This document shows, piece after piece, positions 16,238 through 43,631 of a stretch of DNA of 64,000 nt. Source of the DNA: Escherichia coli (GTDB lineage: Bacteria; Pseudomonadota; Gammaproteobacteria; Enterobacterales; Enterobacteriaceae); the NCBI RefSeq assembly GCF_016026235.1, contig NZ_CP065613.1; one strand, written 5' to 3'. Below the pieces are notes generated by a model, which was not told the origin of the DNA, made no database searches, and saw nothing but the letters and a program-made list of their open reading frames with translations. The first letter of the stretch is position 1, and each line of letters opens with the position of its first letter. The position numbers and the translations under genes were made by a program.

Positions 16238-16367
16238 AGTGTGGTAGAATATCAGCTTACTATTGCTTTACGAAAGCGTATCCGGTGAAATAAAGTCAAC
16301 CTTTAGTTGGTTAATGTTACACCAACAACGAAACCAACACGCCAGGCTTATTCCTGTGGAGTTATAT

Positions 16368-16697
16368 ATGAGCGATAAAATTATTCACCTGACTGACGAC
16401 AGTTTTGACACGGATGTACTCAAAGCGGACGGGGCGATCCTCGTCGATTTCTGGGCAGAGTGGTGCGGTCCGTGCAAAATGATCGCCCCGATTCTGGATG
16501 AAATCGCTGACGAATATCAGGGCAAACTGACCGTTGCAAAACTGAACATCGATCAAAACCCTGGCACTGCGCCGAAATATGGCATCCGTGGTATCCCGAC
16601 TCTGCTGCTGTTCAAAAACGGTGAAGTGGCGGCAACCAAAGTGGGCGCACTGTCTAAAGGTCAGTTGAAAGAGTTCCTCGACGCTAACCTGGCGTAA
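16368..16697 (+). CDS. trxA: thioredoxin 1
   Basis: ATG at 16368 inside track ORF; [37 protein letters not shown] (WCGPC active site), 109 aa. Confidence 0.97.
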
Positions 16698-32981: not shown

Positions 32982-33058
<77 letters not shown>

Positions 33059-33115
33059 TTTAGTCCCGGCGCTTGAGCTGCGGTGGTAGTAATACCGCGT
33101 AACAAGATTTGTAGT

Positions 33116-33192
33116 GGTGGCTATAGCTCAGTTGGTAGAGCCCTGGATTGTGATTCCAGTTGTCGTGGGTTCGAATCCCATTAGCCACCCCA
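33116..33192 (+). tRNA. hisR: tRNA-His (anticodon GTG)
   Basis: GGTGGCTATAGCTCAGTTGGTAGAGC...TTAGCCACCCCA, including the extra 5' G typical of tRNA-His. Confidence 0.95.
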
Positions 33193-33212
33193 TTATTAGA
33201 AGTTGTGACAAT

Positions 33213-33299
33213 GCGAAGGTGGCGGAATTGGTAGACGCGCTAGCTTCAGGTGTTAGTGTCCTTACGGACGTGGGGGTTCAAGTCCCCCCCCTCGCACCA
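33213..33299 (+). tRNA. leuT: tRNA-Leu (anticodon CAG)
   Basis: 87-nt long-variable-arm tRNA GCGAAGGTGGCGGAATTGGTAGACGCGCTAGCTTCAGG...CTCGCACCA. Confidence 0.95.
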
Positions 33300-33341
33300 C
33301 GACTTTAAAGAATTGAACTAAAAATTCAAAAAGCAGTATTT

Positions 33342-33418
33342 CGGCGAGTAGCGCAGCTTGGTAGCGCAACTGGTTTGGGACCAGTGGGTCGGAGGTTCGA
33401 ATCCTCTCTCGCCGACCA
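33342..33418 (+). tRNA. proM: tRNA-Pro (anticodon TGG)
   Basis: CGGCGAGTAGCGCAGCTTGGTAGCGCAACTGGTTTGGGACCAG...CTCGCCGACCA. Confidence 0.95.
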
Positions 33419-35468: not shown

Positions 35469-35676
35469 GGTAGATGCTCATTCCATCTCTTATGTTCGCC
35501 TTAGTGCCTCATAAACTCCGGAATGACGCAGAGCCGTTTACGGTGCTTATCGTCCACTGACAGATGTCGCTTATGCCTCATCAGACACCATGGACACAAC
35601 GTTGAGTGAAGCACCCACTTGTTGTCATACAGACCTGTTTTAACGCCTGCTCCGTAATAAGAGCAGGCGTTTTTTT
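35469..35676 (+). ncRNA. glmZ: GlmZ small RNA (activator of glmS translation)
   Basis: GTAGATGCTCATTCCATCTCTTATGTTCGCC... through terminator hairpin GCCTGCTCCGTAATAAGAGCAGGCG + T7; matches recalled GlmZ sequence and its position upstream of hemY. Confidence 0.85.
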
Positions 35677-38197: not shown

Positions 38198-38938
38198 TTA
38201 TTGTAATGCCCGTAAAAGCGCATCGTTGTCAGCGTTATCGGCGACCTTAATGTCTTGCCAGCCCAGTTCCCGGGCGAGTTTCGCCAAACGCTCACTGACG
38301 ACCAATAGTCGACAGCGTAGTAACCAGTGCTCACGATACCATTGTGGGATCAGCGACCAGAGTTGCTGCAACATTTCACCGCTGGTAACAACGACCGTCG
38401 TCACCTCGCGGGATTGCCAGCGCATCGCTTCTTCTGCACCATCGTAATGGATTGCGCATCGTTGATAACATTCACAAAAAGTGACCTCAGCACCGCGCGC
38501 TGTCAGGGTATCCCCAATTAGCTCACGACCGCCATTGCCACGTAATATCAGCGCACGTTTGCCCGCAATATTTTGTAATTCAGGTAATTGTAGCAAGACT
38601 TCGCTGATTTCCCGATCCTGCGGGTAGAGAATCTTCTGTCCGCTTACGGTATGTAGCGCCAGTGCGGTGGTGCGTCCAATGGCGAAATAATCAGGTAGTC
38701 GGGGCCATTTACGATCTTGCTGATGCAGCTGTGATTGGGCAAAAGCAACCGCGTGTTGCGAGAGGGCAAACAGCAGATCGCTCTCCCCCAGCGCCGCCAG
38801 TTGATCAGCAAGTTGCGGTAATTGTCGACCCGGAGAAAACTCAATCAGCGGAAAATGCCAGGCCACCTGCCCCAGTGTGCGCAGACGGCTCACTAACTCT
38901 TCTCCAGCGGGAGACGGGCGGGTGACCAGGATACTCAT
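38198..38938 (-). CDS. hemD: uroporphyrinogen-III synthase
   Basis: 246-aa [23 protein letters not shown]...; overlaps hemC stop. Confidence 0.93.
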
Positions 38939-39876
38939 GTCGGGGCGTCTCCGTTATAGACTTCAGCGAGGATCTCGCGCGCGCCGTTATTCAGTAGCTC
39001 TTCTGCCAGCGAAATCCCCATTTGTTCGGCATCTTGCGGCGCACCGCGGCGTTCACCGCGAATAATCTGCGAACCGTCCGGCGCGCCGACCAGCGCACGC
39101 AGCCAGATTTCACCATCAATAAGCTCGGCGTAGCTACCAATTGGCACCTGACATCCGCCTTCGAGACGGGTATTCATGGCGCGTTCTGCGGTAACGCGCA
39201 GTGCAGTTTCGTGGTGATTCAGCGCGGCAAGCAGCTCGCGAGTGCGTGCATCATCAAGGCGGCATTCAATACCCACCGCACCTTGCCCTACCGCCGGAAG
39301 AGAAATCTCGGGTGGCAACGCGGCGCGAATACGTGACTCCAGACCTAAACGTTTTAGTCCGGCTACGGCAAGAATGATGGCATCGTATTCGCCGTTATCT
39401 AGTTTGCTCAGGCGAGTGCCGACGTTGCCGCGCAGGGAGCGGATAATCAGATCCGGGCGGCGTTCAGCCAGTTGGCACTGGCGACGTAAACTGGACGTCC
39501 CGACGATACTGCCTGCCGGTAACGCATCCAGACTGTCATAATTATTGGACACAAAGGCATCGCGAGGATCTTCACGCTCACAAATAGTGACCAACCCCAG
39601 ACCTTGCGGGAATTCAACCGGCACATCTTTCATTGAATGTACGGCGATATCGGCGCGATTCTCCAGGAGCGCGACTTCCAGCTCTTTTACAAATAAGCCT
39701 TTTCCGCCTACTTTCGCCAGCGGCGTATCAAGAATCACATCGCCGCGCGTCACCATCGGTACCAGTTCAACCACCAGGCCCGGATGGCTCGCCATCAACT
39801 TGTCTTTGACATAGTGTGCCTGCCAGAGTGCAAGTGGGCTTTGGCGTGTGGCAATTCTTAAAACATTGTCTAACAT
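38935..39876 (-). CDS. hemC: porphobilinogen deaminase (hydroxymethylbilane synthase)
   Basis: Track ORF 38935..39897; start placed at 39876 ([23 protein letters not shown], 313 aa); upstream ATG at 39897 also possible. Confidence 0.9.
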
Positions 39877-40262
39877 GCTTGTTACCGTCATTATCATCCG
39901 TGGTCCATCCTAACATCCTTGCCAGAGTGATGTCAGTGTTGTGGTGAAACGTAGACGCTTGCGCAAACCGTAAAATGAGGTCTGGCAGTGGATCCTGACA
40001 GGCGTTTCACGCCGTCGTAATAAGGAATTTACAGAGAATAAACGGTGCTACACTTGTATGTAGCGCATCTTTCTTTACGGTCAATCAGCAAGGTGTTAAA
40101 TTGATCACGTTTTAGACCATTTTTTCGTCGTGAAACTAAAAAAACCAGGCGCGAAAAGTGGTAACGGTTACCTTTGACATACGAAATATCCCGAATGCCG
40201 CGTGTTACCGTTGATGTTGGCGGAATCACAGTCATGACGGGTAGCAAATCAGGCGATACGTC

Positions 40263-42809
40263 TTGTACCTCTATATTGAGACTCTGAAACAGAGACTGGA
40301 TGCCATAAATCAATTGCGTGTGGATCGCGCGCTTGCTGCTATGGGGCCTGCATTCCAACAGGTCTACAGTCTACTGCCGACATTGTTGCACTATCACCAT
40401 CCGCTAATGCCGGGTTACCTTGATGGTAACGTTCCCAAAGGCATTTGCCTTTACACGCCTGATGAAACTCAACGCCACTACCTGAACGAGCTTGAACTGT
40501 ATCGTGGAATGTCAGTACAGGACCCACCGAAAGGTGAGCTTCCAATTACTGGTGTATACACCATGGGCAGCACCTCGTCCGTAGGGCAAAGTTGTTCCTC
40601 TGACCTGGATATCTGGGTCTGTCATCAATCCTGGCTCGATAGCGAAGAGCGCCAGTTACTACAACGTAAATGTAGTCTGCTGGAAAGCTGGGCCGCCTCG
40701 CTGGGTGTGGAAGTCAGCTTCTTCCTGATTGATGAAAACCGCTTCCGTCATAATGAAAGCGGCAGCCTGGGGGGCGAAGATTGTGGCTCCACCCAGCATA
40801 TACTGCTGCTTGACGAATTTTATCGTACCGCCGTGCGTCTCGCCGGTAAGCGTATTCTGTGGAATATGGTGCCGTGCGACGAAGAAGAGCATTACGACGA
40901 CTATGTGATGACGCTTTACGCGCAGGGCGTGCTGACGCCAAATGAATGGCTGGATCTCGGTGGCTTAAGCTCGCTTTCTGCTGAAGAGTACTTTGGTGCC
41001 AGCCTTTGGCAGCTCTACAAGAGTATCGATTCCCCATACAAAGCGGTACTGAAAACACTGCTGCTGGAAGCCTATTCCTGGGAATACCCGAACCCACGTC
41101 TGCTGGCGAAAGATATCAAACAGCGTTTGCACGACGGCGAGATTGTATCGTTTGGTCTCGATCCATACTGCATGATGCTGGAGCGTGTTACTGAATACCT
41201 GACGGCGATTGAAGATTTTACCCGTCTGGATTTAGTACGTCGCTGCTTCTATTTAAAAGTGTGCGAAAAGCTCAGCCGTGAACGCGCCTGCGTAGGCTGG
41301 CGTCGCGCAGTGTTGAGCCAGTTAGTGAGCGAGTGGGGTTGGGACGAAGCTCGTCTGGCAATGCTCGATAACCGTGCTAACTGGAAGATTGATCAGGTGC
41401 GTGAGGCGCACAACGAGCTGCTCGACGCGATGATGCAGAGCTACCGTAATCTGATCCGCTTTGCGCGTCGCAATAACCTTAGCGTCTCCGCCAGTCCGCA
41501 GGATATCGGCGTACTGACGCGTAAACTGTATGCCGCGTTTGAAGCATTGCCAGGTAAAGTGACGCTGGTAAACCCGCAGATTTCGCCCGATCTCTCGGAA
41601 CCGAATCTGACCTTTATTTATGTGCCGCCGGGCCGTGCTAACCGTTCAGGTTGGTATCTGTATAACCGCGCGCCAAATATTGAGTCGATCATCAGCCATC
41701 AGCCGCTGGAATATAACCGTTACCTGAATAAACTGGTGGCGTGGGCATGGTTTAACGGTCTGCTGACCTCGCGCACCCGTTTGTATATTAAAGGTAACGG
41801 CATTGTCGATTTGCCTAAGTTGCAGGAGATGGTCGCCGACGTGTCGCACCATTTCCCGCTGCGCTTACCTGCACCGACACCGAAGGCGCTCTACAGCCCG
41901 TGTGAGATCCGCCATCTGGCGATTATCGTTAACCTGGAATATGACCCGACAGCGGCGTTCCGCAATCAGGTGGTGCATTTTGATTTCCGTAAGCTGGATG
42001 TCTTCAGCTTTGGCGAGAATCAAAATTGCCTGGTAGGTAGCGTTGACCTGCTGTACCGCAACTCGTGGAACGAAGTGCGTACGCTGCACTTCAACGGCGA
42101 GCAATCGATGATCGAAGCCCTGAAAACTATTCTCGGCAAAATGCATCAGGACGCCGCACCGCCAGATAGCGTGGAAGTCTTCTGTTATAGCCAGCATCTG
42201 CGCGGCTTAATCCGTACTCGCGTGCAGCAACTGGTTTCTGAGTGTATTGAACTGCGCCTTTCCAGCACCCGCCAGGAAACCGGGCGTTTCAAGGCGCTGC
42301 GCGTTTCTGGTCAAACCTGGGGGTTGTTCTTCGAACGCCTGAATGTATCGGTACAAAAACTGGAAAACGCCATCGAGTTTTATGGCGCTATTTCGCATAA
42401 CAAACTGCACGGCCTGTCAGTGCAGGTTGAAACCAATCACGTCAAATTACCGGCGGTGGTGGACGGCTTTGCTAGTGAAGGGATCATCCAGTTCTTCTTC
42501 GAAGAAACGCAAGACGAGAATGGCTTTAATATCTACATTCTTGACGAAAGCAACCGGGTTGAGGTGTATCACCACTGCGAAGGCAGCAAAGAGGAACTGG
42601 TGCGTGACGTCAGTCGCTTCTACTCGTCATCGCACGACCGCTTCACCTACGGCTCAAGCTTCATCAACTTCAACCTGCCGCAGTTCTATCAGATTGTGAA
42701 GGTTGATGGTCGTGAACAGGTGATTCCGTTCCGCACAAAATCTATCGGTAACATGCCGCCTGCCAATCAGGATCACGATACGCCGCTATTACAGCAATAT
42801 TTTTCGTGA
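40263..42809 (+). CDS. cyaA: adenylate cyclase (class I)
   Basis: 848-aa ORF beginning with TTG at 40263 ([18 protein letters not shown]...). Confidence 0.95.
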
Positions 42810-42848: not shown

Positions 42849-43169
42849 TTAGCGGAAACTGACTGTTTCACCCGCCTGCTGCGTCGCCGCCTGTTCCAGC
42901 AAATCCCAGAAGGTTTCGCCGCTGCGATCGCAAATCCACTCATCGCCTTTCAGATCAAAATGGTAGCCGCCTTGTTTGGTTGCCAGCCATACCTGGTGCA
43001 GCGGTTCCTGGCGGTTGATAATGATTTTGCTGCCGTTTTCAAAGGTAATGGTCAGCACGCCGCCGTTGATTTCGCAGTCGATATCGCTGTCGCCATCCCA
43101 GTCGTCCAGACGCTCTTCAATGGTCAGCCACAGTTGATCAGCCAGGCGATGAAATTCACTGTCGTTCAT
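42849..43169 (-). CDS. cyaY: frataxin homolog CyaY
   Basis: 106-aa [46 protein letters not shown]... Confidence 0.95.
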
Positions 43170-43631
43170 TGTTGTATCCTGTTTTTAAGTGATGGCGGCA
43201 GTATAGCGGCATGGGGTCAGGGCTTCAAAGTTTGCACCTCTGCTGCTGCGTTCCGGCATGATTCATCCGTCACCGGAATAATGATGTCTCTGTGTAGCGA
43301 AAGATTTGTCTCTTCATTAGGGCGCAGTTACACCACGCCTTTCCCTGTTTCTGGTAAACATTATGATCAGGTTTACCGAGCGAGCATCCTCACGCTGACG
43401 GAACTAAAAAAGCCAACAAACAAACTACATTGCGATAGTGCATAGAGCCATCTTGGCGCGAGGTGCCGATCACGAAACTACCAGCAAAACATAAATCCCC
43501 ACGAGTAAGCGTTATACTCGCAGCATTTCCTCACTTTTCAGACTTTATAAAGAGTCGCTAAACGCTTGCTTTTACGTCTTCTCCTGCGATGATAGAAAGC
43601 AGAAAGCGATGAACTTTACAGGCAATCCATA

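Follow-up and report, generated by a model that had tools for sequence, protein, structure and literature searches.

The question raised by this locus is where translation of cyaA begins and how much of the DNA upstream of the gene belongs to its messenger. The UUG of cyaA is a textbook case in which a poor start codon limits the synthesis of a potentially toxic signalling enzyme. For the 64,000-nt stretch of Escherichia coli DNA considered here (the window), a preliminary description had stated that cyaA begins with TTG, its known weak start, and that the gene is preceded by a leader of about 385 bp shared with the divergent hemC. Based on reference annotation, conservation across Enterobacterales, and published experiments, we conclude that the region around position 40263 is the ordinary and well-characterized 5′ end of E. 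coli cyaA, consisting of a UUG start, a P2 transcript, a 154-nt leader, and a promoter and regulatory spacer, and we place the probability of this reading at about 95%.

The identity of the gene is given by its product. The coding sequence (40263–42809, + strand) appears in the list of open reading frames as 848 residues plus a stop codon and encodes a class I adenylate cyclase, in which Pfam PF12633 (Adenyl_cycl_N) covers residues 5–200 (277.1 bits) and PF01295 (Adenylate_cycl) covers residues 228–825 (858.7 bits), while the NCBIfam equivalog NF006977 is matched over residues 1–848 of 848 with 2050 bits, its cutoff being 1761. An open reading frame of 848 codons with full-length family matches lies far beyond chance, and this CyaA truly belongs among the class I adenylate cyclases and is no mere look-alike. 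The annotated gene order is also the enterobacterial one, with hemC divergent upstream and cyaY convergent downstream. A sequence search of the PDB returned no solved relative of class I CyaA.

The best match to the window is E. coli O111:H8 strain 8E, which is 100% identical at the locus. Compared with positions 3989000–3994500 of MG1655, the window is collinear and 98.7% identical over 5.5 kb, with 74 substitutions and no indels, and MG1655 position 3991153 corresponds to the first base of the cyaA start at 40263. Only two of the differences from MG1655 (39959 and 40016) fall in the spacer between hemC and cyaA, both of them outside the conserved blocks. The leader and the start region are identical to those of K-12, and experiments carried out in K-12 therefore transfer directly to this locus. 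The K-12 gene (b3806; Roy, Haziza & Danchin 1983 and Reddy, Peterkofsky & McKenney 1985, as cited in PMC5499595) is the same gene with the same start base and the same leader; the strain background differs, in nothing that is relevant here.

The initiation codon of cyaA is the TTG at 40263–40265 (+ strand), as indicated by its position in the frame, by RefSeq, and by conservation. The start region of the window reads gcgatacgtcTTGtacctc. Translation of 40203–40502 shows that the cyaA frame is closed upstream by an in-frame TAG at 40242–40244 (+ strand), at an offset of −21 from the TTG, and the TTG is the first ATG, GTG, or TTG of the frame beyond that stop. The intervening codons are CAA ATC AGG CGA TAC GTC and nothing else, so that the stretch between stop and start encodes QIRRYV and contains no in-frame AUG or GUG. 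Downstream, the frame next offers start-type codons at positions 18 (TTG), 20 (GTG), and 27 (ATG, at 40341), the last of which is the earliest ATG in the frame; there is none near the N-terminus. The earlier statement that the 848-residue frame has no ATG close to its N-terminus is thus accurate, and the window holds no in-frame ATG with a Shine-Dalgarno sequence nearer to the conserved N-terminus. Comparison with the annotated start in reference genomes, which had been proposed as a check, leads to the same base: RefSeq starts cyaA at the position equivalent to 40263 both in the identical O111:H8 genome and in K-12 MG1655 (b3806). Mutation of the UUG to GUG or AUG (Reddy et al. 1985, as cited in PMC5499595) raises synthesis, in the ratio UUG:GUG:AUG = 1:2:6, and the UUG is retained in many Enterobacterales and in other gammaproteobacteria (PMC5499595). 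The TTG at 40263 is the real weak start of cyaA, a known feature that reference genomes already carry in their annotation, and there is nothing new in it. On this point RefSeq, codon conservation, periodicity, family profiles, and the cited mutagenesis all agree with the preliminary description.

For the conservation data, each species was represented by a single genome and scanned with a degenerate pattern for PGYLDGNVP (codons 50–58), which retrieved 120 Enterobacterales loci, 109 of them distinct sequences with enough flank for alignment of the start codon. At the position of the E. coli start, 107 of these 109 have TTG, the two exceptions being a TTT in one metagenome-assembled genome and a 1-nt frameshift in one other sequence. 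Over codons 1–26 the mean entropy at codon positions 1, 2, and 3 is 0.13, 0.01, and 0.67 bits, over −15 to −1 it is 0.30, 0.16, and 0.27 and non-periodic, and beyond −16 it is about 1.8 at each of the three positions, where the sequences are unrelated. This division by codon position means that codon-like three-base periodicity begins exactly at the TTG. Variation at third positions is lower immediately after the start than further into the gene (about 0.38 bits in codons 2–13 versus 1.03 in codons 27–100). Of 5425 complete E. coli genomes, 5418 carry the same 61 nt from −30 to +31. Across Enterobacterales, few non-coding bases of the locus are as well conserved as the start codon and the 15 nt that flank it.

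On the other side of the spacer lies hemC (38935–39876, − strand; 313 residues plus stop; Pfam PF01379 and PF03900), whose RefSeq start is at the equivalent of 39876 in both the O111:H8 genome and MG1655, and the solved E. coli HemC chains (1pda, 1ah5, and 1ypn) begin with MLDNVL, which is the 313-residue form. With this start the hemC-cyaA spacer extends from 39877 to 40262 and measures 386 bp. The longest hemC reading frame, which begins at an ATG at 39897, encodes 320 residues, and would reduce the gap to 365 bp, is rejected since RefSeq, the PDB chains, and the predicted transcript start all speak against it. That transcript start, at about 39900, would give hemC a leader of roughly 24 nt and makes the ATG at 39897 unlikely as a start. 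A promoter scan found a candidate hemC promoter at 39907–39936 (− strand), with a −35 of CTGACA, an 18-bp spacer, and a TG-extended −10 of TAGGAT, the core bases of which are invariant across 22 genera; the same CTGACA-18-TAGGAT arrangement is listed for the hemC/cyaA spacer in an RpoD genomic SELEX study (PMC3946193). In the 98 loci in which hemC is divergent from cyaA, the spacer ranges from 256 to 493 bp.

The cyaA leader is much shorter than the spacer. The primers used by Adams et al. (2021) to clone the cyaA 5′ UTR extend from GTTTTAGACC to ...GATACGTC (PMC7815308, supplementary file 4). The gene-specific part of the forward primer is GTTTTAGACCATTTTTTCGTCG and the reverse primer ends in ...CAAATCAGGCGATACGTC (PMC7815308), and they map to 40109–40130 and 40245–40262 of the window, which defines a 5′ untranslated leader of 154 nt at 40109–40262 (+ strand), where position 40109 derives from a cloning primer and not from a table of transcription starts. 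At canonical distances from this position lies the probable P2 promoter (40074–40102, + strand), for which we propose, from the sequence, a −35 of TTTACG (40074–40079), a 17-bp spacer, and a TGt-extended −10 of TAAATT (40097–40102); a simple consensus promoter scan did not call these hexamers. The hemC promoter candidate and P2 would stand back to back, about 140 bp apart. The block between about 40045 and 40126 hardly varies when 22 genera, ranging from Escherichia to Yersinia, Erwinia, and Sodalis, are aligned. It includes a CRP-like site, TGTTAaattgaTCACG (40094–40109, + strand), which overlaps both the P2 −10 and the transcript start and is a candidate site of repression. With two mismatches to TGTGA-N6-TCACA, this site is not distinguished by its pattern, which is at chance level (17 matches in the window versus 25.6 expected), and we do not use the consensus match as evidence; the candidate is put forward on conservation and on the literature. 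Specifically, cAMP-CRP represses cyaA, CRP binding covers the −10 in Y. pestis (PMC3050693), and cyaA/hemC is ranked among the top cross-species predictions of Crp sites (PMC1794230). Just upstream of the P2 −35 there is a conserved palindrome, GTGCTACActtgtaTGTAGCGC (40045–40066, + strand), which is terminator-like on both strands (hairpin of −11.1 kcal/mol, z = −2.84) and the sequence of which is kept in Enterobacteriaceae and Erwiniaceae. Among 72 distinct sequences the palindrome is mostly conserved as sequence, with no convincing compensatory pattern in the covariation analysis.

These results bear on the second part of the preliminary description. The size it had given agrees with the 386-bp spacer and the divergence of the two genes stands, but the figure does not describe a leader, since that of cyaA is 154 nt, nor is any leader shared, since hemC has its own promoter. 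The 386 bp are an intergenic spacer, and it is this spacer, not a common leader, that cyaA and hemC have in common. The correction is one of terminology: the 386-bp spacer contains a 154-nt leader, and the remaining 230 bp or so are regulatory DNA.

Three other readings of the region have to be weighed against this one, two of which move the start codon. If translation began downstream, at the TTG of codon 18, the GTG of codon 20, or the ATG of codon 27 at 40341, the sequence from 40263 would be non-coding regulatory RNA. Candidates are indeed present in frame, none of the aligned species deviates from the ATG of codon 27, and a Term-seq 3′ end coincides with 40341. However, codons 2–26 vary mainly at third positions, with the entropies of 0.13, 0.01, and 0.67 bits given above, and the N-terminal peptide is almost invariant; the alignments to the Pfam N-terminal domain and to the NCBIfam equivalog begin at residues 5 and 1, respectively; the TTG of codon 18 and the GTG of codon 20 are missing in many species; and mutagenesis of the UUG itself alters output (cited in PMC5499595). 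We regard a downstream start as extremely improbable. A start upstream, at the ATG at 40234, would either extend CyaA at its N-terminus or drive cyaA expression via an overlapping upstream reading frame. A weak GGA precedes this ATG by about 9 nt, and six of the distinct related sequences compared have its homologue in the cyaA frame and no intervening stop. In the window, however, it lies in the +1 frame, and the TAG at 40242–40244 closes the cyaA frame; a 1-nt indel changes the relation of the two frames between close relatives, and the sequence from −60 to −16 lacks coding-like conservation. Moreover, in the available part of the supplementary tables of Adams et al. (PMC7815308), the cyaA rows are without the uORF flag that the rows of other genes carry. 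An upstream start is therefore highly improbable as well.

The remaining alternative leaves the start at 40263 and concerns the messenger, proposing that transcription from a promoter adjoining hemC runs through the whole spacer of about 385 bp and gives cyaA a long leader. Older literature describes further weak upstream promoters of cyaA (P1 and P1′), which counts in favor of a long leader. The GGAATTTACA block at 40024–40034, conserved in Enterobacteriaceae, could be the −35 of such a promoter, and two promoter-like sequences are listed for the spacer in the RpoD SELEX study (PMC3946193). Yet the 5′ UTR that has been used experimentally begins at 40109, the strongest conserved promoter-like block, which includes the CRP-like site, lies directly upstream of that position, the terminator-like hairpin at 40045–40066 would stand between any upstream promoter and P2, and the conserved block near hemC is a minus-strand promoter. 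A leader spanning the spacer is thus very unlikely to be the main one, and minor upstream promoters with longer cyaA leaders may exist beside P2.

With the start at 40263 and the main transcript from P2 as the preferred reading, the conserved translation-initiation region, as defined by entropy and by alignment, extends from −15 to +9 (40248–40271, + strand) and reads ATCAGGCGATACGTC TTG TAC CTC. The 15 nt before the TTG (ATCAGGCGAnAyGTC) are near-invariant, with 0.0–0.3 bits at every position except −6 and −4. They include an SD-like AGG at 40251–40253 (−12 to −10), 9 nt before the UUG and within an invariant CAGGCGA, which is weak relative to the GGAGG consensus; read by eye, AGGCGAT agrees in 6 of 7 positions with AGGUGAU, which is complementary to the 3′ tail of the 16S rRNA. 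Two hairpins were considered here and rejected. One pairs the SD-like element with the start (AGGCG/CGUCU) and can form in 98.5% of cells, but the sole change is G-C to G-U, no compensatory change occurs, and shuffled sequences do equally well, so that it is not separable from sequence conservation. The other, CUCUG/CAGAG in codons 7–11, has two pairs that do not hold in 35 and 20, respectively, of 66 sequences. The failure of these tests means that the initiation region is conserved as primary sequence. The fold of the 154-nt leader together with 60 nt of the reading frame is no more stable than its shuffles (z = −0.20), and an Rfam scan of the whole window with a permissive scan of 39800–40400 (E ≤ 10) gave no family in the spacer and only a spurious snoRNA match. 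By Rfam, fold, and covariation, the leader therefore does not qualify as a structured cis-regulatory RNA such as a riboswitch, a thermometer, or an attenuator.

From these elements we put forward the most likely sequence of events for the expression of cyaA. P2 would fire at about 40109, a coordinate derived from the literature, to give the main cyaA mRNA, and cAMP-CRP bound at the site over the −10 and the start would, as the literature indicates, repress cyaA in a negative feedback. The 154-nt leader then presents the ribosome with the weak SD-like AGG ahead of the UUG, and as the latter initiates, according to the literature, about six-fold less well than AUG in the cyaA context, the synthesis of CyaA is kept low. 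We infer that the same inefficient initiation leaves the early cyaA reading frame poorly covered by ribosomes and thus exposed to Rho. The cyaA gene is among the validated cases of premature Rho termination in 5′ UTRs and early reading frames of E. coli (Adams et al. 2021, PMC7815308), with Term-seq 3′ ends at MG1655 3991231 and 3991346 and a Rho termination region at 3991343 (PMC7815308). By means of their flanking sequences the 3′ ends map to 40341 and 40456 of the window, 78 and 193 nt into the reading frame, and the Rho region maps to about 40453, such that the two 3′ ends bound an early-ORF region at 40341–40456 (+ strand; PMC7815308, supplementary files 1–3). The effect of a rho mutation on cyaA is present in a fusion that carries the UTR and the reading frame and is lost in a fusion with the UTR only (PMC7815308), and the same authors take termination within coding sequences as a possible sign that translation initiation is regulated (PMC7815308). 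Exposure of the early cyaA reading frame to Rho as a consequence of the weak UUG would fit this published premature termination.

The arrangement has close parallels in other Enterobacterales, where the cya loci (the control region of Salmonella typhimurium, Thorner et al. 1990; Yersinia pestis) have in common the divergent hemC-cyaA order, the TTG, the initiation region, and the P2/CRP block. They differ in the length of the spacer (256–493 bp), and most genera have a shorter leader than E. coli. More distant parallels are the AUU of infC, the UUG of spoT, and the GUG of hupB (PMC5499595), which like the UUG of cyaA are conserved weak starts of regulatory genes at which mutation to AUG raises output. 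The infC case differs in that the unusual codon is the target of an autoregulatory loop through IF3. We know of no dedicated sensor for the cyaA UUG that is comparable to the infC/IF3 pair.

In-frame starts upstream of the TTG vary between genera, and in E. coli the TAG blocks them. The ATG at 40234 opens an out-of-frame reading frame of 17 codons (40234–40287, + strand, from translation), which overlaps the cyaA start in the +1 frame and stops at the TGA at 40285–40287. In E. albertii, Salmonella, and Citrobacter, by contrast, the 1-nt indel brings the homologous ATG into frame with cyaA, 10 codons upstream and with no stop between, and judging from the sequences these species may make an extended CyaA isoform. 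In 24 of 68 distinct Enterobacterales sequences, a C-to-T change at −4 produces an ATG at −5, likewise out of frame, and with it a second overlapping frame, which has 9 codons and ends at the same TGA as that from 40234. One may ask whether the near-invariant −15 to +9 region, the low synonymous variation of codons 2–13, and the overlapping AUG frames together constitute a dedicated translational control element, one that would set output by start-site competition or coupling and would gate Rho termination. We consider such an element unlikely. The overlapping AUG reading frames and the low third-position variation in early cyaA could be incidental or could hint at start-site competition.

The gene cyaA, which encodes the class I adenylate cyclase, starts with TTG at 40263-40265. 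Synonymous variation is unusually low across Enterobacterales in codons 2-13 (window 40266-40301), where third-position entropy is about 0.38 bits compared with 1.03 in codons 27-100, and codon 11 is a rare arginine codon kept across species, mostly as AGA and as CGA in Yersinia. The TTG start is also overlapped by a 17-codon out-of-frame ATG ORF on the + strand (40234-40287, +1 frame), whereas in E. albertii, Salmonella, and Citrobacter the homologous ATG lies in frame with cyaA, at 10 codons upstream of the TTG (codon -10), and is followed by no stop. Of 68 distinct Enterobacterales sequences, 24 carry a T four nucleotides upstream of the TTG (position -4), which gives rise to an out-of-frame ATG at -5, and the resulting 9-codon ORF ends at the same TGA as the 17-codon E. 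coli ORF.

Term-seq 3' ends published by Adams et al. (2021; PMC7815308) are located at 40341 and 40456 (+), which are 78 and 193 nt inside cyaA, and a Rho termination region lies in the gene at about 40453. A strong 3' end is likewise located about 66 nt inside the divergent hemC, at window 39811 (-) (MG1655 3990701). Early-ORF 3' ends are thus found in both cyaA and hemC. In the spacer between them, directly 5' of the -35 element of the inferred cyaA promoter P2, is a conserved palindrome, GTGCTACActtgtaTGTAGCGC (40045-40066), which is terminator-like on either strand with a hairpin z of -2.84. Its conservation in Enterobacteriaceae and Erwiniaceae is one of sequence, with little covariation; binding of a protein or insulation is a possible function of the palindrome.

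Several loci in the comparative sets are exceptional. The TTG is replaced by TTT in one Enterobacteriaceae metagenome-assembled genome (L018, 3192-3256, -), and one other genome has a 1-nt frameshift directly past the cyaA start region (L100, 3996-4060, -); these loci may be pseudogenes or assembly errors. A contig labeled Chryseobacterium sp. 18061 (CACSKA010000013.1) carries a hemC-cyaA locus of typical enterobacterial kind, whose TTG start and initiation region match those of enterobacterial cyaA, and is probably contamination or a mislabeled assembly. Among 5426 complete E. coli genomes, one lacks the hemC-cyaA start region entirely, and one record has an extra plasmid copy of it.

A sequence search of CyaA (40263-42806) against a 2026 copy of the PDB gave no similar chain (0 at E ≤ 0.001). 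Elsewhere in the window, Rfam matches at the gathering score, all on the + strand, are the GlmZ sRNA (35470-35676), four tRNAs (32982-33415), the trxA 5' UTR thermometer (16298-16397), and the "Rev39 5' UTR" family (898-1187), the last of which appears, by offset to K-12, to lie in the ilvG-ilvM region. A 161-aa ATG ORF (42960-43445, +) overlaps cyaY in antisense, and its MG1655 counterpart is the annotated yzcX (b3808).
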